In this document: piece by piece, positions 3,414-63,392 of the stretch
How the letters are laid out: each line of letters begins with the position of its first letter
Numbering within the stretch: position 1 is the stretch's first letter
Assembly: GCA_964343705.1 (NCBI GenBank)
Contig: CAYFJX010000008.1
Location: forward strand, 447-64,446
Direction: 5' to 3'
Source: an uncultured Methanosarcinales archaeon
GTDB lineage: Archaea; Nanobdellota; Nanobdellia; Woesearchaeales; UBA12501
Length of the DNA stretch: 64,000 nt
The notes under the pieces: model-generated
Seen by the model: only the letters and a program-made list of their open reading frames with translations
Databases searched by the model: none
Told to the model about the DNA's origin: nothing
Position numbers and translations under genes: made by a program

Positions 3414-3569
3414 TTACTTTTTCTTCTTACCCTGCTTTTTCCCAAACTTTATCTCATCAGCTTTCTTAGTCATCCAGGCATACTGCATTGCCATACTAAA
3501 GCGGCCGACTAATACACCAATGGCAAAAATGAAGAGCCATATAATATAGGTAAGATTTGTTAAGTCCAT
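3414..3569 (-). CDS. possible 51-aa single-pass membrane peptide (MDLTNLTYIIWLFIFAIGVLVGRF...KKQGKKKK)
   Basis: Short ORF below the track cutoff; one clear TM helix followed by a Lys-rich tail; no homology evidence. Confidence 0.3.
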   Translation of the reverse strand: MDLTNLTYIIWLFIFAIGVLVGRFSMAMQYAWMTKKADEIKFGKKQGKKKK

Positions 3570-3809
3570 GTTATGGAAATGAGTAATAATGGTATTTAAA
3601 GCTAATGATTAAGGAGCTAAAAATTAATAATCATCACCTAATGTTTTTTAACTGCATAGCACTAACCGGCCATTAGCCGGATTAAATCGCCCTTTAGGGT
3701 GATTAAAACTATGCAGTAAAAAGGTTATGATCCTTATGACTAAGCACAAATTACTACAAAAAAATAAAACCGATAACTTTATATATCAATTGATAATAAA
3801 TAATATCAA

Positions 3810-17930: not shown

Positions 17931-18535
17931 TTTTTGTTTCCTCCGTCGTTATGATACCTAGGAAATATTTGTACTCAGTTATATAGGTTTCGATAAAATG
18001 CTCCCACTGGACACAATTTTCGTCAAAGACGAAAATGCGCATCTGAGCTTTGCTCAGATTGCACTGGACATACATGGATGGCTTTGCCTGATAAGTATTA
18101 TTTCTGCCCGAAAAGTAGCATATCTTTGGATTTTGTCAGAGTTTAACATCGCGATTAAGAGAAGTTCGGTTTTGAGGCAACCCACACCAAAAAAATTTGG
18201 GAAACATTCGGGAAATCGCTTGGCGATTTAGGCGAAGCCGACCGAATTTTCCTGATAATTCCTGTTAGTTTCTTTTCCCATACGTAGTGTGGGAAAATTT
18301 CGTCCGAAAAGTTTTTTCGGGGGCGTTCCATCTTTGGAGCGAATAGCGACTATCCAGAACATGTATCTAAGGGCACACTCATTTTACATCTATAATCTGG
18401 GAAATCTTTTACTGCTATTCAAGGGGTTCGGGGGCGAAGAAGAGCAGACTAATTATCTCTTTTAGGCGGTAATAAATGCAAAGCTTTATATAGTTAAATC
18501 CTATTTTTAGGATAAATCAAACCTAAAAAAGAAAA

Positions 18536-27433: not shown

Positions 27434-28580
27434 TTAGGGAGAACTTCTTTTAATTAAGGTATTTGTGTGATTTTGATAAATGTATTTTTTTGGGGTTAGA
27501 ATAGTGGTTGTTTTTTGTGTTTATTTTGTTTTTATTTGTTGTTTTTTTACTTTTTTAAGAGTGCTTTCGCTAGGTTGAGAGTAGGAATCGTAGTCGGTGG
27601 ATGTTGTATGCTGCGTATTGGAATATTTGTTGTATGAATACTCTTCCTGTTGTGGTGAGTTTTGTTCGTCCTCCTTTGAAAACTCTACTAATTGTTGCTA
27701 AAGGATGTTCTCCTCGACAACGTGATTTTGTTATTCTTTTGTTCCGTAGTTTTTGTTTGGGTGTTAGGTTGCCTCTTTTCATTGTTGCGTTACCTTTTGC
27801 TTTTGTTGGTGACCCACTGTAACAACGATCACGTTTTATTATTTCATCTGGCTTTGCCAGATCAATATGCCCATCAAAAACTTTTGCAGTGGCAACTGCA
27901 AGCTTTGTCACTAGCTTAGTTCCTTCATCAACTTTGAAATGAGTTTTGTAACCAAAGAAACTTTTCTTTCCTTTCTTTGTCCATGTCGCGTCTTTATTAC
28001 GACTTGTTTTTGCTTCCCTACCACGATTTATTTTATCACTACTCTGCTTTTTACCAGGATCAGCAACAACAAAAGTCGCATCCTGAATTTTACCCTCTTT
28101 CAAAATAATATTGTTTTTAGCAAATTCTTTTTGGAGTGCACTCCAAAAAGAGTCAATCAAACCTTCTTCCTGAAGCCACTCACGATAAGCCCAAATAGTT
28201 TTAGCATCAGGAATATGAGCATAACCCAAAAAATTTCGAAAATCAAACCTGTTATAACACTGATATTCAAGCTCCTCATCACTCACATTATGCCACGCCT
28301 GAAGACACAATACTTTAAGCATTACAACATGAGGTATCGGACGACGACCAGCTTTTTCAGGAGTCCTATCAGGAAGAGAACCAGCAAGAGCCCCCCAATC
28401 AACCAAATCATGCACCTCCTGCAAAACACACTTACGCTTAACAACCTCCTTAAACTTCTCACTCAAAACAAAATCAACCAAAGTCCCCATAAAAAAACAC
28501 CTCACTTTTTTATAAACTATCGACGACAAAACAAGTATAAATAATTTACTATTTCAAACAATTAATAGAAATTCTCTAAA
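27434..28580 (-). mobile_element. IS5-family insertion sequence (about 1.15 kb)
   Basis: Imperfect terminal inverted repeats TTAGGGAGAACTTCTTTTAATT (about 27434-27455) and AATTAATAGAAATTCTCTAA (about 28561-28580) enclose one DDE transposase gene. Boundaries are approximate. Confidence 0.5.
27570..28529 (-). CDS. IS5-family DDE transposase (DUF772 N-terminal + DDE_Tnp_1)
   Basis: GRRPIPHVVMLKVLCLQAWHNVSDEELEYQCYNRFDFRNFLG (InsH N-terminal), DATFVVAD, DATWTKKGKKSFFGYKTHFKVDEGTKLV..A.VFDG, AAYNIHRL. The likely true start is Met14 (MGTLVDF, about 28490). Confidence 0.8.
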   Translation of the reverse strand: MSSIVYKKVRCFFMGTLVDFVLSEKFKEVVKRKCVLQEVHDLVDWGALAGSLPDRTPEKAGRRPIPHVVMLKVLCLQAWHNVSDEELEYQCYNRFDFRNFLGYAHIPDAKTIWAYREWLQEEGLIDSFWSALQKEFAKNNIILKEGKIQDATFVVADPGKKQSSDKINRGREAKTSRNKDATWTKKGKKSFFGYKTHFKVDEGTKLVTKLAVATAKVFDGHIDLAKPDEIIKRDRCYSGSPTKAKGNATMKRGNLTPKQKLRNKRITKSRCRGEHPLATISRVFKGGRTKLTTTGRVFIQQIFQYAAYNIHRLRFLLST

Positions 28581-28599
28581 GATAACTTTGAATTGGTGG

Positions 28600-28935
28600 A
28601 TAGCTTAGGGGGGACTTTTTATGTGCCTTTTAAAAACAACAGTAAAGGCTCTGGAAATGGTATGATTTGGAAGATAAATGTATCATTATTTCATGCTGAA
28701 TAATGAAGAATATTTACAGCACTATCACTCAAGAAGCAACGCAGAAAGTACAGTAAACATGATAAAAAGTAAATTCGGAGATAGAGTAAGAAGTAAACTA
28801 TGGACAGCACAGATTAATGAAGTGCTTTGTAAAATCATAGCCCATAATATCTGTTGTGTAATAATGGAAATGAACGAATTAGGATTAGAAAGCAATTTTT
28901 GCCCGAATAGTCAAGTAGTTGCCCGAAATGTCTAA
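28600..28935 (+). pseudogene. 3' remnant of a second transposase gene, frameshifted and truncated by the IS5-like insertion
   Basis: YVPFKNNSKGSGNGMIWK in one frame continues as MYHYFMLNNEEYLQHYHSRSNAESTVNMIKSKFGDRVRSK...AHNICC in another. This is a transposase C-terminal pattern, and the fragment begins right at the IS end. Confidence 0.5.
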
Positions 28936-29006: not shown

Positions 29007-29765
29007 ATGGTAAAAAGGTTAAAAAAAGAGCAGGTTGAGAATATATTTAGGCTTACAAAAAAAGGCATATCACTAAATAGAATAGAGAAGATTACTGGTT
29101 TAAAAAAGACAACCATCTATTATCATTTTAGAAAGATTAAGCCTAAAACAACCCAACCAATAATAGTTAATTCAGAAAATGATGAGTTGATAGGTGAAGT
29201 TGTAGGCTTATTTGCAGGAGATGGATCTTGTGATATAATGAAAAAAGGCAAATATAGAGTGAGACTCCATTTTAATATAACTGAAAAAGAATTTGTTAGA
29301 AAACTAAATGAAGATGTCCTAAAAAACATTTTTGGAAAAGAGCCCATGGTTTTTAGACAGGAAAATAGATTAAATCTTTGCTATTACTCAAAAAACATTC
29401 ATTTGTTACTTAACACTTACCTGACTTGGGATAAGTCAAGGAGAAAAACTTATTCTGTACAATTAAAGACACATAATCACCCCCTGGCTTTTTGTAAAGG
29501 TTTTATAAGAGGTTCTTTAGATAGTGATGGGTGTTTATCTGACAAAAAAATCAGTTTCGCAACAGTGTCACCTGGCTTAAAGGACAACATATCTTTTTTT
29601 CTGGAACAATTAGACATAAAACATTCAGTAAGAAAATATAAAGAGAAGAGATCAAACAGAAAGGACATTTACCACATTAATGTTATGAGAAAAGAACATG
29701 GTAGATTCATGGACATCATAAAACCAAGGAATATAAAGGGACTGAATGCACCAGCCGAGATTTGA
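29007..29765 (+). CDS. free-standing LAGLIDADG homing endonuclease-like protein with N-terminal HTH
   Basis: 252 aa; two LAGLIDADG motifs (VVGLFAGDGSC and FIRGSLDSDGCL). TTATATA box about 25 nt upstream, so possibly leaderless. The 3' end overlaps tRNA-Gly on the other strand. Confidence 0.8.
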   Translation: MVKRLKKEQVENIFRLTKKGISLNRIEKITGLKKTTIYYHFRKIKPKTTQPIIVNSENDELIGEVVGLFAGDGSCDIMKKGKYRVRLHFNITEKEFVRKLNEDVLKNIFGKEPMVFRQENRLNLCYYSKNIHLLLNTYLTWDKSRRKTYSVQLKTHNHPLAFCKGFIRGSLDSDGCLSDKKISFATVSPGLKDNISFFLEQLDIKHSVRKYKEKRSNRKDIYHINVMRKEHGRFMDIIKPRNIKGLNAPAEI

Positions 29766-29845
29766 ATTTCCGAACGCTCAGTCCCAAAACGTTTCTCGGA
29801 CCGCCGGCTTGGAAGGCCAGAATCCTACCATTAGACTACTGGTGC
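29747..29845 (-). tRNA. tRNA-Gly(UCC) with a roughly 28-nt non-canonical intron between the T-stem 5' strand and the T-loop
   Basis: GCACCAG/CTGGTGC acceptor; anticodon arm CTGGC-CTTCCAA-GCCGG. T-arm CCGAG...TTCAAAT-CTCGG is interrupted by AAACGTTTTGGGACTGAGCGTTCGGAAA (about 29767-29794). Mature length about 71 nt. Confidence 0.75.
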
Positions 29846-30605: not shown

Positions 30606-31742
30606 ATGAAAAAAAAGGTTGTGATAGTAACTGATAATTTCATCCCAAAAAGGGATGGAGTAACACGCTTTCTAAAGAATGTTGTACAAGAAATTAGTGA
30701 TAAATACACCATCACTATTCTGGCACCTTCATACAGTAGTTCATACACCACAGAAGAATTTCATGGTGCAAGTGTTATTCGTTTTCCGGTTTCAAGACTT
30801 GTAGGATTAGGAGGCTACAATGCAGTACTTGTGAGACCAAGCAAAATAAAACCCTACCTGCATGATGCAGACATTGTCTGGCTTAATAGTATGTCACCCT
30901 TTTGTACTTCTGCTTTGCGAGCTGCAAAACAATTGGACAAACCAGTTATTGCCTACAAGCATGCGATTGACTGGGATCTAGCGTCACACATGGCAGTTAA
31001 GTCAAAGATGATGAAGAAGTTGGTACGCTTTGGCCTTAAACAACCATTAAAGTACTTGTACAACAAGTGCGATCTTGTAATGGTCTCATCAAAGAACATT
31101 GCACGACACCTAACTGAGCAAGGTATTAAGACCAAGAAAACAATTATTCCATTGGGTGTTGATTGTGATTCATTTGTTGCTACAAAAGATAAAGATGCTG
31201 CAAAGGAAAAGCTAGGAATTAACGCTGAGCGTATAGTTGTGGGGTACTGCGGCCGTCTGAGTACTGAGAAGGATATTCCAACACTTGTAAAAGCCTTTTC
31301 TCGATTGCACCATCGTTATTTTAATTTATACCTCCTTATTGTAGGAGATGGTAATAGGAAAACAGTGACAGAATATGCAAAAAAGAATTATAGGATCACT
31401 GGCATGGTTGATGATGTTGTTCCCTACCTGCAAGCAATGGATATTTTTGTGTTGCCTTCTCTGACTGAGACTACTTCCTTGGCAACATTGGAAGCCATGA
31501 GTTGCGGTGTTCCTCCTATTGCAACACCAGTGGGGCATGTACGAGAGTATATTGAAAATAACTTTAATGGTATGCTGTTCCCTCGTGAAAATGTTGACGT
31601 GTTACAAGGACGCATTGAAAAGCTCATCAAAGATCCTGTAAAGCGAAAGCGAATGGGGGAATTGGCTAGGAAGACAATAACGACAAAATATAGTTGGGAA
31701 AGGACTATTGTACAGATAGATAGGGTATTAAGTAAGTATTGA
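30606..31742 (+). CDS. GT4-family (GT-B) glycosyltransferase
   Basis: 378 aa; C-terminal E.TSLATLEAMSCGVPPIAT (EX7E region). Confidence 0.8.
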   Translation: MKKKVVIVTDNFIPKRDGVTRFLKNVVQEISDKYTITILAPSYSSSYTTEEFHGASVIRFPVSRLVGLGGYNAVLVRPSKIKPYLHDADIVWLNSMSPFCTSALRAAKQLDKPVIAYKHAIDWDLASHMAVKSKMMKKLVRFGLKQPLKYLYNKCDLVMVSSKNIARHLTEQGIKTKKTIIPLGVDCDSFVATKDKDAAKEKLGINAERIVVGYCGRLSTEKDIPTLVKAFSRLHHRYFNLYLLIVGDGNRKTVTEYAKKNYRITGMVDDVVPYLQAMDIFVLPSLTETTSLATLEAMSCGVPPIATPVGHVREYIENNFNGMLFPRENVDVLQGRIEKLIKDPVKRKRMGELARKTITTKYSWERTIVQIDRVLSKY

Positions 31743-35412: not shown

Positions 35413-38400
35413 TCAAACCTTTAAACTCGTAACTTGACTCACACCATGCTCGTTCATGCTTACACCATACAAACGATCTGCTTCTGCAATAACAGCGTCG
35501 TTGTGAGTGATAACCACATACTGTGCATTGCCAGTGTATTTCCGAATGAGTTGGGCAAAGCGTTCTGAGTTTCTTTTGTCAAGAGCTGCGTCAACCTCAT
35601 CAAGTACGTAAAAGCTTGCTGGTTCGTGTTCTTGAATTGCGAAAATAAATGCTAGTGCAGTGAGTGTTTTCTCACCACCAGACAAGCTTCGAATATCAAG
35701 GAATCGTTTTCCAGACAATCGCACTTTAATCATTAATCCGCCATCAAAGGGACTTTCTGGATTTTCTAGGACAATAGAAGCATCCCCTTTTGTTGAGATA
35801 GCAGAGAATAATACTTTAAAGTTGTTATTAACAATGTCAAATGTTTTCATAAAGAGATTTTTCTTTTTAGTTTCAATCTCGTTCATCATAAGCAGGACAT
35901 CTTCTTTTTCCACAATGAGTTTTTCTTTTTTCTGTACAAGAGACGCATACTCCTTTTCAATACTTGTGTAAATCTCAAGTGCTTTCATGTTTACTGCGCC
36001 AAGCTTAGTAACCACACCTTCCCAAATGCCAATTTGCTTTCGTAACTCCGCTGCTGGCTTTTTCACAATTTCAATACCCTCATAGTCTTTGTATTCATGT
36101 TCAAGACCTGCAATCTCAGCATTAACACGTGATAGTTCAATAGAACTTGTATTGAGTCTCAGTTCAATCTTACGCACCTGCTCTCCAACTTCTTCCATTT
36201 TGCTTGTTTCTTTTTTGATAGATTCATCAAGCTTTCCTCGTTTTGCAAAGAGCTCTTTGAATTGTGCGTGGAATTTTTGTTGTGCTGTTTCTTTTTGCTT
36301 AAGCTCCACACCCTTGTCTTGCATAAGTTTGTCAAGAGCAGCAAGTTCTTCCTTAAAGTCTTCTTCTTCCTTGTCATGTTGTTTGATTATCTTAAGAATG
36401 TTTTCAAGCTCTGGCCTGAGGATTGTATCCATTTGCGCGTCAAGATTCTTTAGGTCTGACTCTCTTTGTAAACCTTCTTCCATGCTTTGCTTGCGCTTTT
36501 CTTCAAAAGCATTAAGTTCTGCAATAAGTGAGGGGTTACGCAGCTCAACAATTTTGTTTCGCATTTCTTGCTTCTTTATTCTGTTTTGTGCAAGAGTTCT
36601 GTTTTGTTCTTGAATGTCATCCTCAACTTTCCTAATGTCCTTTTCTGATTCTTCAAGTGCTTTCTCCAGTTCTTTTCGTACTTTCCTGTTTGCTTCTGTA
36701 TCTGCAGCGTCAATATTAAGCACTTTTTCAAGTTTGATTATGTCCCCTTCAAGGTCAGCTTTGAACTGTCGTAAGCGTGCAATGTTTTGTTCAAGGTCTT
36801 TTCGTTCTTTATCTATCCGGGATATAAGTAGCTCTGCGTCTTGCAAGATTTTTTCATATTTTTCTATGTCTGAAGTTACTTCTTTTTGTTGGAATCCAAT
36901 ACCTAGTCGTTTTCTGTAACCACCCTGCATAACTCCTGAGAGTTCACTAAGGTCACCGTCCAGACTGACCATTTTTACTTTACCCACTCCAATTCGTCGA
37001 GCAACATCAATACTGTCAACAACAAGGGTGTTACCAAACACGTGACTAAAAACAGTTTTGTACTTAGGATTAAATTGCAATAAGTCTATAGCAAGTCCAT
37101 GTACGCCATTTGCTTTTTTTAGTTCAGCGATACCTTGTGCTGGAGCTGCCCCTCTTATTTTGTTCATTGGAACAAAGCTAGCAACCCCAAACTTGTTTTC
37201 TTTAAGAAACTTAATACACTGCACAGCTGTCTTGTCACTGTCCACTACCACACTCTTTAATTTGGATCCTGCTGCGATTTCTAATGCTTTTGAGTATTTT
37301 GATTCAGCTGTACCAAGTTCTGAGACAGTCCCATGAATCCCTTGGATTGAACCTTTTTGTTTTTGTTCAAGAATCTTCTTTAATCCAAGATCTCTACCGA
37401 GCACTTCTTGAATAGAAAGGTTTTGTGCGCGCAGCTTACCAAGTTGCTCACTTGATGTTGCACGCTTTCCTCTTGCAGTATCGAGTTGTGCACATAGGTT
37501 ACTATCATGATTAATAAGTTTAGATAATTCTAAGGTTGACTTTTTGAATTCTTCTTTCTTTTGTTTCAGTTCTTTTACTTGTGCCTGGTTTTCTTTTTCA
37601 ACTTCAAGCACTTTTTGTATTTTTTCGTCAATAGACTGTATCTGAAACTCAATTTTGTCTTTTTCTCTGAGTAGTTCTTGTTGCTTTTGGCGCAGTTCAA
37701 GCATTGCCTTTTGTTTTTGTTCTGCTTCCTTGTCAAGCTCATCAACTTGTTTTTCAATATCTCCAACATTGTCAAGCTTGTTTTTTTTCTTGAAGTCAGC
37801 AATTTTTTGTTCTATAACTCCTCTGAGCTTTTGCTTTGCTGCAAGTTGTGCTTGAAGTTCTTTTTTGTTTTCTTCATGCTTCTTGATTTTTGATCCTAGC
37901 TCATCATGGTTTTCGCGAAGCTGCACCTTACGTTGTTTTATTTTAGAGATCTCATTTTTAACTGCTTCAACACGATTTTTTGATGAAGCAATGTCAACTT
38001 TTAGTTTTTCAACTTCTTTGTGGATTTCAACTTGGCCTTTTTCTCCCCGCTCTTCAACTTGTTTATTGATCCCGCTAATTTCTTCGCCAAAACCTTTTAT
38101 TTTCTCTTTTGATTCCAGAACTCTGTTTTGTTTTTCTTCAAGTTGTTGTTTTGTTTGTCCGCTTACCTTGGATAGTTTTTCTTTTTCTGTTTTTTTATCG
38201 ACCATTGTTGCATGTAACAATGATGCTTTGTTGACTTTAATTTTATGAGTAAGATCATTGTATTTTTGTGCTTGTTCTTTTTCCTTGCCAAGTTCTTGCA
38301 AATGCGTCTTTCGCTCTTTAAGGACTATGCCTGACTCTTTAAGTTTTTCCTCAACTTTGTTAAGCTCATTCACTGCCTTTTGTTTTTTTTCTTCATACAC

Positions 38401-40542
38401 TGAAATACCTGCAATCTCTTCAATTATAAGACGACGTTCTTCAGGAGGCATTTCTACAAAACGTACAATATCCCCTTGCAGGATTACATTGTAACCATTG
38501 GGGTTAATTCTAGCAAGAGAAAGAAGTTCTAGAATTTGTTGTCGTGTTCGCGTTTCATTATTAATCTTGTAAACACTATTTCCTTTTGGCTTTACAATAC
38601 GTGAGATTTTAACTTCATCTTCTTCTGTAGGAAAAATCTTTTTTTTGTTATCAAAGAAGATTGATACTTCCCCACTTTTTGCTGGTTTTTTTGATTTACC
38701 ACCATTATAGATGAGATTAGCAGATTTTTCTGTTCGTAATGCTTTTGCAGAACTTTTCCCAAGTACAAAACAGAGAGCGTCCAGGACATTACTATTATGA
38801 ACAAAGAAATTATTAGCAACAAAATTATGATCATTTTCTACGCAAAGATCATACACCCATTTTTCTTTAGATTGCATGCTTTCTAGTTCTACAATTTCAT
38901 CCCAGTAGATATCTGATGTTGAAATCGCTTGTAAGACAGAAAGGGTTTGCGATTGTACTCCTGTTAGTGTTGCAGTAGGTGTGAATAGTTGACTCATAAG
39001 CTGTTGAACACCTGACCGGCTAGGCAAACATTGATTATAACAGTACGCATCAAGTTTTGCAAATGTCTTCTTAGTTCTTTTAATATTAATTCTTAATTCA
39101 TGTGTTGCTTGTTTAATAAGAGCATTTACTTCAAGCAGATCAAGATTGGGATTAGTTTTTTTAGATTGTAAGTTTTCCAAGCGTTCTTGTTTTTTAGGGT
39201 GAGTAAACTGAACAAAGGAGTGAAATAATTTAAAGTTATCAACACCTGTTACAGTTATATGTTCATATTTCCCTGAGTAACCACTATTTGTTGCAATCTT
39301 AATAATGTCTTTTGATCTAAAGAGGATCCCTAAACGAAGAAGGATTGTTTTTATTCCTTGAGCAAGTTTTTTGCTCTTTGTTGTAATCTCAATGGAACTT
39401 TGAGAAACATATCCATCACCAGAATAAAGACCATCGAGTAGTGCACCAAGCTCTTCGGGACTACTGTGAGTTAAGAAAAGGTCAGTTATCTTCTTGTTTC
39501 CTGTTGCACCCAATGACATACCTAATTTGTGTAAAATAATTTGGGCAGGAATAGAGTAAGCCAGCACATCCCAACATCTTGATTTATATTCATTTACTGT
39601 TGCTCGCAAGTCAAAAACATCTTGAATAAGACTGTGATAGTCTGCAACTACTTCCTCACAGCCATTTGTAAACCAGATCTGGTTAGAGTTAGTAAGACGA
39701 CCTTCTGCAAGAAGATAGCCTAACAAGCGAGCAACTGAAGGACTATTTTTCCAGGGCATCTTGTAGGTTATCCTACTTGTTTTTGCTTTTATTCGAGGTA
39801 TAAGTGTCATGATGACATCATTGTCAAGACCTGCTTTCCTAAGGATTTTTACAAGATGAGCAAAGTTAATTGATTGCTCATCACAAAGACCTTTAAGAAC
39901 ATAAAAAGATATATCAAGCTCCTGTGCAAGCTGCTTTAGGGTTTTATTCTGTTTTATTCTCCCTAAAATTTCTTTAAATTTTGGATCGTAAGGAACATAG
40001 ATTCCATCTTCTGCAGTTATCTTATCAAGTAACTCATAGAATATTTTTGTCTTTGGTTGGACTGGCATTGAACGAGGTACAGCAACACGAACACCTTCTT
40101 GTAATTCGTCAGCTCGAATACTTTTAATTTTTGTTCCATCCATAACAAACAGAGGATGATATTCTGTTGCAGTAATTTCCCGTCCTGAACGTGTTCGTAT
40201 TCGCACTAATTTCTTGGGAGAAGTTCTTTTTACAAAGGATTGTACATGTCGAACCTTTGTCTTTAATGTTTCTGTATCTAAACAAAGTATTTTTACATCC
40301 CCCCCAAGAGCTAGTTCACCATCATCAATTGTTTGAGCACCTAACTTTTTGATATTGTTTTCAACTAGTTTTTGTATTTCAATTGAGGATCCATCAGCTA
40401 GTTGGACCTTAGTGTCACCAACCACACATTTTCCAGAACCATTTGGACCAAGGATAATATTGAATTTATCGCCAAATGGCATCTCGGTTCGCTTGGCAAA
40501 TGATTTGAAACCATGCATCAATATTTTGTTGATTTTTGTCAT
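35413..40542 (-). CDS. smc: SMC chromosome-segregation ATPase interrupted by an intein
   Basis: N-terminal FKSF...LGPNGSGK / SNVLDALCFVLG split Walker A, about 350+350 aa coiled coils, hinge (GIHGTVSELG..), C-terminal LSGGEKTLTALAFIFAIQ signature and FYVLDEVDAALD Walker B. The extein totals 1164 aa. Confidence 0.95.
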   Translation of the reverse strand: MTKINKILMHGFKSFAKRTEMPFGDKFNIILGPNGSGKCVVGDTKVQLADGSSIEIQKLVENNIKKLGAQTIDDGELALGGDVKILCLDTETLKTKVRHVQSFVKRTSPKKLVRIRTRSGREITATEYHPLFVMDGTKIKSIRADELQEGVRVAVPRSMPVQPKTKIFYELLDKITAEDGIYVPYDPKFKEILGRIKQNKTLKQLAQELDISFYVLKGLCDEQSINFAHLVKILRKAGLDNDVIMTLIPRIKAKTSRITYKMPWKNSPSVARLLGYLLAEGRLTNSNQIWFTNGCEEVVADYHSLIQDVFDLRATVNEYKSRCWDVLAYSIPAQIILHKLGMSLGATGNKKITDLFLTHSSPEELGALLDGLYSGDGYVSQSSIEITTKSKKLAQGIKTILLRLGILFRSKDIIKIATNSGYSGKYEHITVTGVDNFKLFHSFVQFTHPKKQERLENLQSKKTNPNLDLLEVNALIKQATHELRINIKRTKKTFAKLDAYCYNQCLPSRSGVQQLMSQLFTPTATLTGVQSQTLSVLQAISTSDIYWDEIVELESMQSKEKWVYDLCVENDHNFVANNFFVHNSNVLDALCFVLGKSSAKALRTEKSANLIYNGGKSKKPAKSGEVSIFFDNKKKIFPTEEDEVKISRIVKPKGNSVYKINNETRTRQQILELLSLARINPNGYNVILQGDIVRFVEMPPEERRLIIEEIAGISVYEEKKQKAVNELNKVEEKLKESGIVLKERKTHLQELGKEKEQAQKYNDLTHKIKVNKASLLHATMVDKKTEKEKLSKVSGQTKQQLEEKQNRVLESKEKIKGFGEEISGINKQVEERGEKGQVEIHKEVEKLKVDIASSKNRVEAVKNEISKIKQRKVQLRENHDELGSKIKKHEENKKELQAQLAAKQKLRGVIEQKIADFKKKNKLDNVGDIEKQVDELDKEAEQKQKAMLELRQKQQELLREKDKIEFQIQSIDEKIQKVLEVEKENQAQVKELKQKKEEFKKSTLELSKLINHDSNLCAQLDTARGKRATSSEQLGKLRAQNLSIQEVLGRDLGLKKILEQKQKGSIQGIHGTVSELGTAESKYSKALEIAAGSKLKSVVVDSDKTAVQCIKFLKENKFGVASFVPMNKIRGAAPAQGIAELKKANGVHGLAIDLLQFNPKYKTVFSHVFGNTLVVDSIDVARRIGVGKVKMVSLDGDLSELSGVMQGGYRKRLGIGFQQKEVTSDIEKYEKILQDAELLISRIDKERKDLEQNIARLRQFKADLEGDIIKLEKVLNIDAADTEANRKVRKELEKALEESEKDIRKVEDDIQEQNRTLAQNRIKKQEMRNKIVELRNPSLIAELNAFEEKRKQSMEEGLQRESDLKNLDAQMDTILRPELENILKIIKQHDKEEEDFKEELAALDKLMQDKGVELKQKETAQQKFHAQFKELFAKRGKLDESIKKETSKMEEVGEQVRKIELRLNTSSIELSRVNAEIAGLEHEYKDYEGIEIVKKPAAELRKQIGIWEGVVTKLGAVNMKALEIYTSIEKEYASLVQKKEKLIVEKEDVLLMMNEIETKKKNLFMKTFDIVNNNFKVLFSAISTKGDASIVLENPESPFDGGLMIKVRLSGKRFLDIRSLSGGEKTLTALAFIFAIQEHEPASFYVLDEVDAALDKRNSERFAQLIRKYTGNAQYVVITHNDAVIAEADRLYGVSMNEHGVSQVTSLKV
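38794..40428 (-). mobile_element. 545-aa intein with LAGLIDADG homing-endonuclease domain, inserted after GPNGSGK of SMC
   Basis: Starts CVVGDTKVQLADGS (block A); TATEYHP (block B); LAGLIDADG motifs LLGYLLAEGRL and LLDGLYSGDGYV; ends VYDLCVENDHNFVANNFFVHN followed by Ser +1. Confidence 0.9.
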
Positions 40543-42783: not shown

Positions 42784-42903
42784 TAGCGGAGGGAGGATTT
42801 GAACCTCCGACCTCAGGGTGTCCAAGATAACAGATGCCATCATATGAGCCTTCCGCAGCCTTTAACAGGCTTCTGCGGGCACTCCTGGCTGCCCTACCCC
42901 GCT
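42784..42903 (-). tRNA. initiator tRNA-Met(CAU) with two introns (about 22 nt in the anticodon stem 5' strand, about 23 nt after position 37)
   Basis: AGCGGGG...CTCCGCT-A acceptor (A1:U72). Spliced anticodon arm CAGGG-CTCATAA-CCCTG has the three G:C pairs of initiators. T-arm GGAGG-TTCAAAT-CCTCC. Introns are at about 42851-42872 and about 42820-42842. Mature length 75 nt. Confidence 0.8.
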
Positions 42904-42962
42904 ATAATATTCTTGTCAGAAAAAGATTTACTTTATAAATGTTCCTGTTTAAAAAAATAATA

Positions 42963-43595
42963 ATGAGTAAAGAGCTTGAAGATGAAAAATATGCTGAGAT
43001 TTCAGGAATTCTCTTAGGAGATGGTTGCATTACTCTTAAAGAGAACAATCCCAAATCAATAAATCGACTAAAAATCAGTCTAAATTCAGTTGATGACCTT
43101 GCTTACATTTACCATGTGAAAAAGTTACTGCAAGACACATGTGGAGAAGAAGCAAAAGTAAAAAATAGAAAGAATGAGAACACAACAGATATAATGATTT
43201 TTAAGAAAAAAGTAGTCTTATTTTTTATACAAGAGTTAGGGTTGCAGATTTCACCCAAATGGGAACGAGCTATTATCCCTGAAAGGTTCATGCAAGAAAA
43301 ACTTGATTTAAAAGTTTTACAAGGATATTTTGACACAGATGGTTGTTTAGTTACTGCAAATAACAATGGAACTATCTACCCTCGATTAGAAATGAAAGTA
43401 TGTCCCTCCCCCATGCAAAAACAGTTTATAGAAATACTGAAAAAATATGATTTTAGGTTTGGTGTTTATGAAATAGGAAATGGAGAAGTTAGAATCCAAT
43501 TGAATGGTAAAGAACAGTTAAGAAAATGGATTGGACTAGTTGGATTTAATAATAAAAAGCATAGTGAAAAAATAAAACGTTTTAATCTAAACTGA
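42963..43595 (+). CDS. free-standing LAGLIDADG homing endonuclease-like protein
   Basis: 210 aa from MSKELEDEKY; motifs ISGILLGDGCI and LQGYFDTDGCL. TTTATAAA box about 28 nt upstream of this ATG, so possibly leaderless. Confidence 0.8.
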   Translation: MSKELEDEKYAEISGILLGDGCITLKENNPKSINRLKISLNSVDDLAYIYHVKKLLQDTCGEEAKVKNRKNENTTDIMIFKKKVVLFFIQELGLQISPKWERAIIPERFMQEKLDLKVLQGYFDTDGCLVTANNNGTIYPRLEMKVCPSPMQKQFIEILKKYDFRFGVYEIGNGEVRIQLNGKEQLRKWIGLVGFNNKKHSEKIKRFNLN

Positions 43596-63104: not shown

Positions 63105-63196
63105 AAGACAGCTTATTTAGAATGGGATGTCAACAATTAGCCAGAAGGACAAAAACTTTTATAAAGAGGCCCTGTTACCTGTGCTGTTATCCTTAT

Positions 63197-63280
63197 GCCG
63201 TCATCGCATAACCTGGTATTGCGCGGGATTGCTAATCCCGTTTCCTCACGGATATCTGGGTTCAAATCCCAGTGACGGCG
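63197..63280 (+). tRNA. tRNA-Ser(GCU) with long variable arm
   Basis: Acceptor GCCGTCA/TGACGGC; anticodon arm CGGGA-TTGCTAA-TCCCG; about 15-nt variable arm; T-arm CTGGG-TTCAAAT-CCCAG. TTTTATAAA box about 30 nt upstream. Confidence 0.75.
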
Positions 63281-63365
63281 TGGTCTGGAGCTGAGCAGCG
63301 CGAGGCTCTATAATTTCGCCTGATTGAGATTTGGGCACAGGCTCAAAAATCTTTGATTTTTGTTG

Positions 63366-63392
63366 TCTGGGTTCAAATCCCAGTGACGGCGT
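63366..63392 (+). repeat. 27-nt exact duplicate of the tRNA-Ser T-arm plus 3' acceptor strand (orphan 3' half)
   Basis: TCTGGGTTCAAATCCCAGTGACGGCGT occurs at 63255-63281 and again at 63366-63392. This is confirmed by the duplicated TPSLGFEPR in the artefactual antisense ORF. Confidence 0.9.

Follow-up and report, generated by a model that had tools for sequence, protein, structure and literature searches.

A free-standing LAGLIDADG gene beside a split initiator tRNA gene of a woesearchaeal archaeon: a candidate counterpart of collaborative homing

The 64,000-nucleotide stretch of DNA analysed here (the window) corresponds to positions 447-64446 of contig C8 (CAYFJX010000008.1) in the assembly GCA_964343705.1 of an uncultured archaeon of the order Woesearchaeales. 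The assembly comprises 1.84 Mb in 36 contigs and is estimated to be ~90% complete. The window carries an initiator tRNA-Met(CAU) gene (tRNAiMet) that is split by two introns and, on the opposite strand beside it, a free-standing gene predicted to encode a LAGLIDADG homing endonuclease. A second pairing of an intron-bearing tRNA gene with a LAGLIDADG gene lies at 29.0-29.8 kb.

The tRNAiMet gene is 120 nt long, lies on the minus strand at 42784..42903, begins with AGCGGGG and has CTCCGCTA as its last letters. Standard finders missed or misread it. ARAGORN run without introns and Rfam at the gathering score reported nothing at 42903..42784, and ARAGORN run with introns called a tRNA-Ile with a wrong intron where the spliced form is tRNA-Met(CAU). 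The gene was therefore assembled by hand as three exons, and the spliced form was then checked in ARAGORN. Removal of 42872..42851 and 42842..42820 left a 75-nt RNA with a flawless tRNA-Met(CAU) cloverleaf, which carries the archaeal initiator hallmarks of a CAU anticodon, an A1-U72 pair and three G-C pairs closing the anticodon stem (GGG/CCC). Intron 1 (22 nt, minus strand, 42851..42872) occupies the non-canonical site 29/30 in the 5' strand of the anticodon stem, and intron 2 (23 nt, minus strand, 42820..42842) the canonical site 37/38. The junctions were scored for the hBHBh' form of the bulge-helix-bulge (BHB) motif, with a 4-bp central helix, two 3-nt bulges and the splice site between the second and third bulge base. 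At intron 1 all four central pairs form (CCGC/GCGG), with an inner helix of 5 bp and the bulges AGA and AAG; at intron 2 three of the four central pairs form, with an inner helix of 6 bp. Moving the borders of intron 2 by one base abolished the motif, which is found only in the 37/38 register. An earlier sequence-only reading of this DNA had held that two inserts, of about 22 nt in the anticodon-stem 5' strand and about 23 nt at 37/38, must be removed for the tRNA to fold. The cloverleaf bears this out in number, size and site, and BHB motifs fold at both junctions as well as at that of the tRNA-Gly intron described below.

The two BHB motifs of the tRNAiMet gene have nucleotides 31-32 in common and so cannot form simultaneously, suggesting that the introns are excised one after the other. 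The genome has one gene for the splicing endonuclease EndA (221 aa; PF01974 at 102.6 bits), and both inserts are presumably removed from the RNA in the cell. The gene at 42903..42784 has the sole iMet-like 5' end in the genome and is the only tRNAiMet gene found in the assembly, so the split gene must be functional. The uninterrupted initiator anticodon arm, searched for as the exact string GGGCTCATAACCC, is absent from this genome.

The adjoining open reading frame (ORF), on the plus strand at 42963..43595, would encode a monomeric, double-motif LAGLIDADG homing endonuclease of 210 aa. It matches PF03161 (E 6e-9) and also PF14528, both above cut-off. Motif 1 (LLGDG, ~43014-43025) contains D20 and motif 2 (FDTDG, ~43329-43343) contains D126, and these two catalytic aspartates are invariant in an alignment of 32 homologues (32/32) in which the mean column identity is 55%. 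A search of solved structures with the single sequence gave no match, and profile and fold searches were needed. The AlphaFold2 model (pLDDT 96.6, pTM 0.92) had as its best Foldseek match I-Tsp061I (2dch; TM 0.69/0.71 over 204 columns). There were 145 PDB matches at E<=0.001, and all of the 50 best have the LAGLIDADG fold; they are led by I-Tsp061I, I-AniI, I-HjeMI and I-DmoI and include intein endonucleases. In a large protein collection 297 homologues were found at E<=0.001, the best 120 being 50-68% identical and ~200-210 aa long, and the source names of the closest ones are Woesearchaeota or Nanoarchaeota (DPANN). Motifs, catalytic residues and predicted fold thus point to an intact homing endonuclease gene, the product of which would cleave DNA site-specifically.

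The start of this gene depends on which ATG is taken. The sequence-only reading placed a divergent LAGLIDADG ORF 35 nt beyond the tRNA 5' end, which holds for the longest-ORF ATG at 42939; the start shared with homologues is at 42963, 59 nt from the tRNA. Between the two divergent genes a palindromic TATA-like box, TTTATAAA, can be read at 42926..42933. On the minus strand it precedes tRNA position 1 by 23 nt, and on the plus strand it precedes the ATG at 42963 by 30 nt, a spacing that would suit service to both genes.

The second pair consists of a LAGLIDADG gene at 29007..29765 on the plus strand (252 aa, with an N-terminal helix-turn-helix; PF14528, E 4e-13) and a tRNA-Gly(UCC) gene at 29747..29845 on the minus strand (Rfam tRNA, 44.8 bits). 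The ORF converges on the tRNA gene and overlaps its last 19 nt. The tRNA gene carries a 28-nt T-arm intron at 53/54 (minus strand, 29767-29794), whose BHB motif has all four central pairs (TCCG/CGGA) and an inner helix of 7 bp; the mature tRNA-Gly is 71 nt long. The sequence-only reading had described a recurrence of the same pairing here. The pair is real, but its layout (3' convergent rather than 5' divergent) and intron site (53/54 rather than 29/30) differ from those at tRNAiMet.

The association of LAGLIDADG genes with tRNA genes extends across this genome. A whole-genome search with PF14528 and PF03161 found many LAGLIDADG domains, mostly inteins inside long proteins, and eight free-standing ORFs. 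Four of these ORFs are small (218-264 aa), and each has a tRNA gene at a distance of 0-36 bp. Besides the two in the window, a third adjoins a tRNA-Phe(GAA) gene with an intron at ~30/31, and a fourth (264 aa) lies between an intron-less tRNA-Cys gene and a tRNA-Arg(UCU) gene with a 13-nt intron at ~29/30. Among 200,000 random placements of the eight ORFs against 29 listed tRNA genes, a single one put at least four of them within 60 bp of a tRNA gene (P ~5e-6), so that free-standing LAGLIDADG ORFs are enriched beside tRNA genes (4/8). For the four larger free-standing ORFs (309-397 aa), no nearby tRNA was found by relaxed-threshold Rfam or our own scan in a tRNA inventory that is incomplete at ~30 genes. 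These ~30 genes were found by Rfam, ARAGORN and our own scan in the ~90%-complete genome; most of them bear introns, and introns that are multiple or lie at unusual positions probably conceal many others.

Several further observations concern the LAGLIDADG domains and tRNA genes of this genome. The sole EndA gene, with a Lys-rich N-terminus, lies directly after the tRNA-Cys/LAGLIDADG/tRNA-Arg(UCU) cluster (C2:83729-85604; L110:1-1788). Inside the window, a 1709-aa open frame with a LAGLIDADG domain occupies 35413-40542 on the minus strand (C8:35859-40988), and at least ten intein-type LAGLIDADG domains are found in long proteins of the genome. On another contig (C17, ~3490-3600) there is an elongator-type tRNA with a CAU anticodon and a multi-intron build like that of LAGLIDADG-linked elongator Met genes in relatives (L046-L048). 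No LAGLIDADG domain was found on C17, and its introns may therefore have been left behind after loss of an endonuclease gene.

The context of the iMet-linked gene was examined in 301 genomes of the same order and five metagenome contigs. Close orthologues (at least 44% identity) occur in 12 of the 301 genomes, from 11 families, and none was found in a genome of the same genus (G207) or in two others of the same family (G131 and G264). Three of the 12 copies have internal stops or are truncated. At every locus that is at least 51% identical and has readable flanks, tRNAiMet adjoins the ORF. This set comprises 10 genomes of 10 families and two metagenome contigs, the other contigs being duplicates of two of these genomes or of one of these contigs. 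The same holds at the locus with 44% identity (G106). Around these loci the protein genes vary between genomes. The layout varies as well: the ORF lies downstream on the same strand in six cases, converges on the tRNA 3' end at a distance of 3-12 nt in three, and is divergent from the 5' end in three, including the one in the window.

The tRNAiMet-linked proteins group in a single clade (100/98) of a maximum-likelihood tree. A separate clade is tied to elongator Met/CAU tRNAs (100/99), and further branches are tied to tRNA-Gln, tRNA-Asn and tRNA-Thr. Within the iMet clade the tree lacks the resolution to relate ORF layout to phylogeny. Distant homologues (31-38% identity) also lie beside tRNA genes. 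Among 16 loci examined (L043-L058, which include three closer-orthologue loci), ARAGORN alone found an adjacent tRNA in 12, and three of the other four have one by eye. Each LAGLIDADG lineage is thus tied to one tRNA species across many families.

Further observations bear on how these genes reach their loci. The RNase HII gene is syntenic with tRNAiMet (within 1-2 kb) in the present genome (G000) and in G207, G102 and G267. Between G000 and G086, G208, G102 and G267, RNase HII is 56, 51, 56 and 55% identical and the LAGLIDADG protein 64, 64, 62 and 63%, respectively. For an optional gene to be better conserved than a housekeeping gene, it would either have passed between lineages after their split or be under strong constraint. 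Since RNase HII stays near tRNAiMet, and an LmbE-type deacetylase gene near tRNA-Gly, the endonuclease genes appear to dock at a resident tRNA locus.

The Gly-linked protein has matches in 13 of the 301 genomes. Counting the present one, all seven loci with an ORF at least 42% identical to it converge on the 3' end of tRNA-Gly(UCC), and the T-arm intron is present in six of the seven, the exception being G045. In G207 and G131 the tRNA-Gly(UCC) gene is intron-less, and a protein search gave no match to the Gly-linked ORF in either genome. In the ORF-less G131 the tRNA-Gly gene is followed 23 nt on by the LmbE-type gene, and in G045, G062 and G293 the LAGLIDADG gene is inserted exactly between these two. 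In the window the tRNA-Gly and ORF unit is inverted as a whole beside the same LmbE-type neighbour, relative to G045, G062 and G293. Judged from gene order, this locus is a clean contrast of occupied and unoccupied states in a shared context. We propose that the Gly-linked gene stands for a second lineage, independent of the iMet-linked one, that behaves likewise at tRNA-Gly(UCC) in company with a T-arm intron. Just upstream of the Gly-linked gene, within 27570-28935 on the minus strand, lies an IS5-type transposase gene (319 aa; DUF772 and DDE_Tnp_1), accompanied by an 85-aa ORF with no Pfam match; these two may have caused the inversion.

To compare intron content with ORF content, we inspected the tRNAiMet genes individually. 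Occupied genes have from two to four or more introns each. The 29/30 intron is common to all of them, and which further sites are used (D-loop, 37/38, variable region and T-arm) varies. Nineteen distinct 29/30 introns of 21-44 nt from the tRNAiMet genes of relatives all keep the BHB geometry. Their inner helices are wholly different in sequence, and the central helix tracks exon position 27. Five genomes with no iMet-linked ORF were also inspected (G207, G131, G264, G016 and G015). In the first four the tRNAiMet gene is an uninterrupted 75-nt gene. In G015 it has a single T-arm intron and none at 29/30, and its 3' end is overlapped by a LAGLIDADG gene of another lineage. The site of the intron therefore goes with the lineage of the endonuclease.

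This relation was also seen across the whole sample. The uninterrupted anticodon arm GGGCTCATAACCC was found in none of the 12 genomes with an orthologue and in 158 of the 289 without one, and the reversed string, used as a control, gave about four matches in all. The corresponding P is ~1e-4 if the genomes are taken as independent, and the true significance is weaker because the compared genomes, in which the 12 represent 11 families, are related. A second string, CGRAWGGCTCATA, was tried as a signature of the 29/30 intron but not used by itself. It gave 67 matches against ~29 for its reversed control, many of them in coding sequence. Because of this high chance background, only individually inspected 29/30 loci were used, and the cross-tabulation was made on the cleaner GGGCTCATAACCC. 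At least six genomes have the 29/30 intron with no LAGLIDADG gene within 1.5 kb. The sequence-only reading had suspected a functional or mobility link between the intron-bearing tRNA genes and the LAGLIDADG genes, and both of its own checks, foldable BHB motifs at the junctions and enrichment of LAGLIDADG ORFs at tRNA genes, came out in its favour. Three results now support such a link: the enrichment at tRNA genes, the tie of each lineage to one tRNA species, and the comparison of relatives with and without the ORF, in which the ORF goes with the non-canonical intron.

Taken together, these results suggest that the ORF is an optional selfish endonuclease gene whose mode of spread resembles collaborative homing, the enzyme's target being split by the intron; we give this a probability of roughly 0.55. 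The enzyme would recognise ~20 bp of the conserved anticodon arm in an uninterrupted tRNAiMet gene and cut there. The resident 29/30 intron, perhaps together with that at 37/38, would split the DNA site and so render the host's only initiator tRNA gene immune, and EndA and a ligase would restore the tRNA at the RNA level. When a cut intron-less allele is repaired with an occupied one as template, the intron-bearing tRNA gene and the adjoining endonuclease gene would be copied together. After fixation the endonuclease gene would decay or be lost and the intron would remain. Occupied and unoccupied genomes have tRNAiMet exons of almost the same sequence. A target inside the gene would therefore call for a shield that leaves the mature RNA unchanged. 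An intron that divides the DNA site and is removed from the RNA would meet this need. A cycle of invasion, fixation, decay and loss would account for the patchy distribution, for decayed copies alongside full-length ones with intact catalytic residues, for the tie of each lineage to one tRNA, for the docking and for introns that have no endonuclease gene beside them.

Some findings weigh against this interpretation. Occupied genomes do not agree in the exon pairs 27:43 and 28:42 beside the intron, and the central helix changes in step with these pairs, which argues for long residence in each lineage and not for recent co-conversion. The variable position and orientation of the ORF mean that the module is not a fixed cassette. 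The same-genus relative G207 was considered as a pristine empty site and rejected, since its intron-less tRNAiMet gene is inverted with respect to the shared flank and 16 nt of its 3' end are repeated after it. The relatedness of the genomes that weakens the cross-tabulation belongs here too. Finally, the expected intron is missing from some tRNA genes that stand beside relatives of the endonuclease gene, namely the tRNA-Gly of G045, the elongator tRNA-Met of locus L055 and this genome's own tRNA-Cys.

These missing introns are what would be expected if the tRNA gene were only a target or landing mark, with the introns as passengers or unrelated features and immunity arising from the insertion itself or from differences in the flanks. 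Most tRNA genes found in this genome have introns anyway, and several copies of the ORF stop 3-12 nt from the tRNA 3' end, as if that end and not the anticodon arm were the insertion point. Such an account leaves a target within the gene with no shield, given the almost identical exons of occupied and unoccupied tRNAiMet genes. It also has to accommodate the 29/30 intron as the sole feature common to all occupied tRNAiMet genes, on whichever side the ORF lies, and the lack of an uninterrupted anticodon arm in all 12 occupied genomes. We regard it as unlikely. The introns could instead have arrived in a replacement cassette, an incoming element that brings an intron-bearing tRNA gene together with the endonuclease gene and supplants the resident copy by integration and deletion, not by double-strand-break repair. 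The wholesale inversion of the tRNA-Gly and ORF unit beside its LmbE-type neighbour and the nearby IS5-type transposase are in keeping with this, as are short inserts bounded by copies of tRNA 3' ends. In the window, the last 27 nt of the tRNA-Ser(GCU) gene (63196-63281) are exactly repeated 111 nt downstream (63255-63281 and 63366-63392). Similar inserts of ~85-95 nt follow a tRNA-Arg gene on C10 (~31230-31345) and the tRNAiMet gene of G207 (L063:1563-1725), and the three inserts have dissimilar sequences; each may be what remains of an element that integrated at a tRNA 3' end. Nevertheless, no leftover piece of tRNAiMet was found in the 64-kb window and no integrase beside either pair, ancestral neighbours are kept at the tRNA loci in several families, and the exon stem pairs look lineage-specific rather than imported. 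To a cassette of this kind we therefore lend little credence.

The LAGLIDADG protein might also have been domesticated for a host function at the tRNA locus, either as a WhiA-like transcription factor or as a maturase-like helper in intron removal. WhiA and the bI3 maturase are among the fold matches, the palindromic TATA box is possibly shared with the tRNA gene, and the protein is well conserved, with 55% mean column identity and higher identity than RNase HII between the same pairs of genomes. A host function fits poorly with close orthologues in only 12 of 301 genomes and none found in the same genus or family, where an unsplit tRNA gene suffices, and with three decayed copies. Domesticated LAGLIDADG members usually lose the catalytic aspartates, and here both are invariant. 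Moreover, EndA cuts BHB introns and no maturase is required. Domestication is thus very improbable, and the collaborative-homing-like interpretation remains the one that we prefer.

A sequence motif that recurs before tRNA-linked LAGLIDADG genes is recorded here separately. CACTGGACA or variants of it (CACTGGTCAAC; CACTAGACA in L032), often doubled, lie ~20-30 nt upstream of a TATA-like box before many such ORFs (L029, L030, L031, L032, L042, L044, L056, L057 and L088, and this genome's own C2 at ~83935-83950). The window has two copies of this type, at 18005-18013 and 18062-18070, in non-coding DNA upstream of a nucleotidyltransferase/HEPN-like gene pair. The motif may be an operator or a shared promoter element. 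It was not found upstream of either ORF considered here (42963-43595 and 29007-29765) and is not used in our argument.

The closest parallel in mechanism is collaborative homing, reportedly described by Zeng, Bonocora and Shub in 2009 for the free-standing endonuclease F-CphI, which lies beside the psbA gene, with its group I intron, of cyanophage S-PM2. The trans-homing of T4 MobE with the defunct I-TevIII is a related system (for related papers see PMC6083498 and PMC2790892). As at psbA, a free-standing endonuclease gene adjoins a conserved gene with an ORF-less intron, the two co-occur and the intron is thought to split the target. The present locus differs in that the introns are protein-spliced BHB introns of 22-28 nt and not self-splicing group I introns, the gene they interrupt is a tRNA gene on an archaeal chromosome and the endonuclease belongs to the LAGLIDADG family; cleavage and immunity would be as we have proposed above. 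Because the inserts are BHB and not group I introns, we regard the locus as one that works like collaborative homing and not as a member of that class.

The archaeal enzymes I-Tsp061I, I-DmoI and I-PorI are encoded inside BHB introns of rRNA genes. The 210-aa protein resembles them in fold and size, in having two motifs per chain, in its archaeal host and in its partnership with a BHB intron. It differs from them in its low identity (14-17%), in being encoded outside the intron, whose short length leaves no room for such a gene, and in having a tRNA rather than an rRNA partner. In phage T4 the tRNA gene cluster encodes SegB, a free-standing GIY-YIG endonuclease that targets that region in relatives. 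It too is a free-standing homing endonuclease gene among tRNA genes, but it is phage-borne, belongs to another nuclease family and has no intron partner.

Multiple and non-canonical BHB introns are known in the tRNA genes of Thermoproteales, ARMAN and other DPANN archaea (PMC4090602, PMC4033280), and the types of EndA have been described (PMC5829648). The introns reported here agree with those descriptions in their 29/30 and 53/54 sites, the hBHBh' form, the presence of several per gene and a DPANN host with a single EndA gene, whereas no endonuclease gene is named as a partner in that work. Several routes of arrival were tested in a 2026 preprint on Asgard tRNA introns, which left the route open and mentions neither LAGLIDADG genes nor homing. 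Full-text searches of the literature found no paper linking LAGLIDADG genes to archaeal tRNA introns. A protective role of gene interruption was suggested for split tRNA genes by Randau and Söll (as cited in PMC3293823), and Sugahara et al. (2012) proposed a model for a Caldiarchaeum tRNA-Thr. The protection models invoke integrating viruses and plasmids without direct evidence. In both that hypothesis and ours, a tRNA intron would act as a shield against mobile DNA aimed at conserved tRNA sequence. The attackers in the former are virus or plasmid integrases acting at attachment sites; the suspected attacker here is a homing endonuclease encoded beside the shielded gene.

How archaeal tRNA genes gain oddly placed introns is an open question, and this locus offers a testable route of spread. 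It contributes an initiator tRNA as host, a cross-tabulation over 301 genomes, two endonuclease lineages that share one tRNA species yet go with different intron sites, and a syntenic contrast of occupied and unoccupied loci. It also offers a cloneable pair, namely a 210-aa enzyme with intact catalytic residues and its presumed target in natural alleles that have or lack the intron. More generally, and only tentatively, non-canonical BHB introns of archaeal tRNA genes might be gained and kept as immunity partners of free-standing LAGLIDADG genes, with each lineage aimed at one tRNA sequence, a site-splitting intron travelling along, and multi-intron genes as scars of successive invasions. Were this so, collaborative homing would have an archaeal counterpart based on protein splicing, and the arrival of such introns would have a general explanation. 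If the unsplit gene is indeed cut and the split gene spared, the partners of homing endonucleases would include small protein-spliced introns besides group I introns and inteins, and new natural meganucleases with tRNA-gene targets would become available. The tRNAs with several introns would then be records of past invasions.

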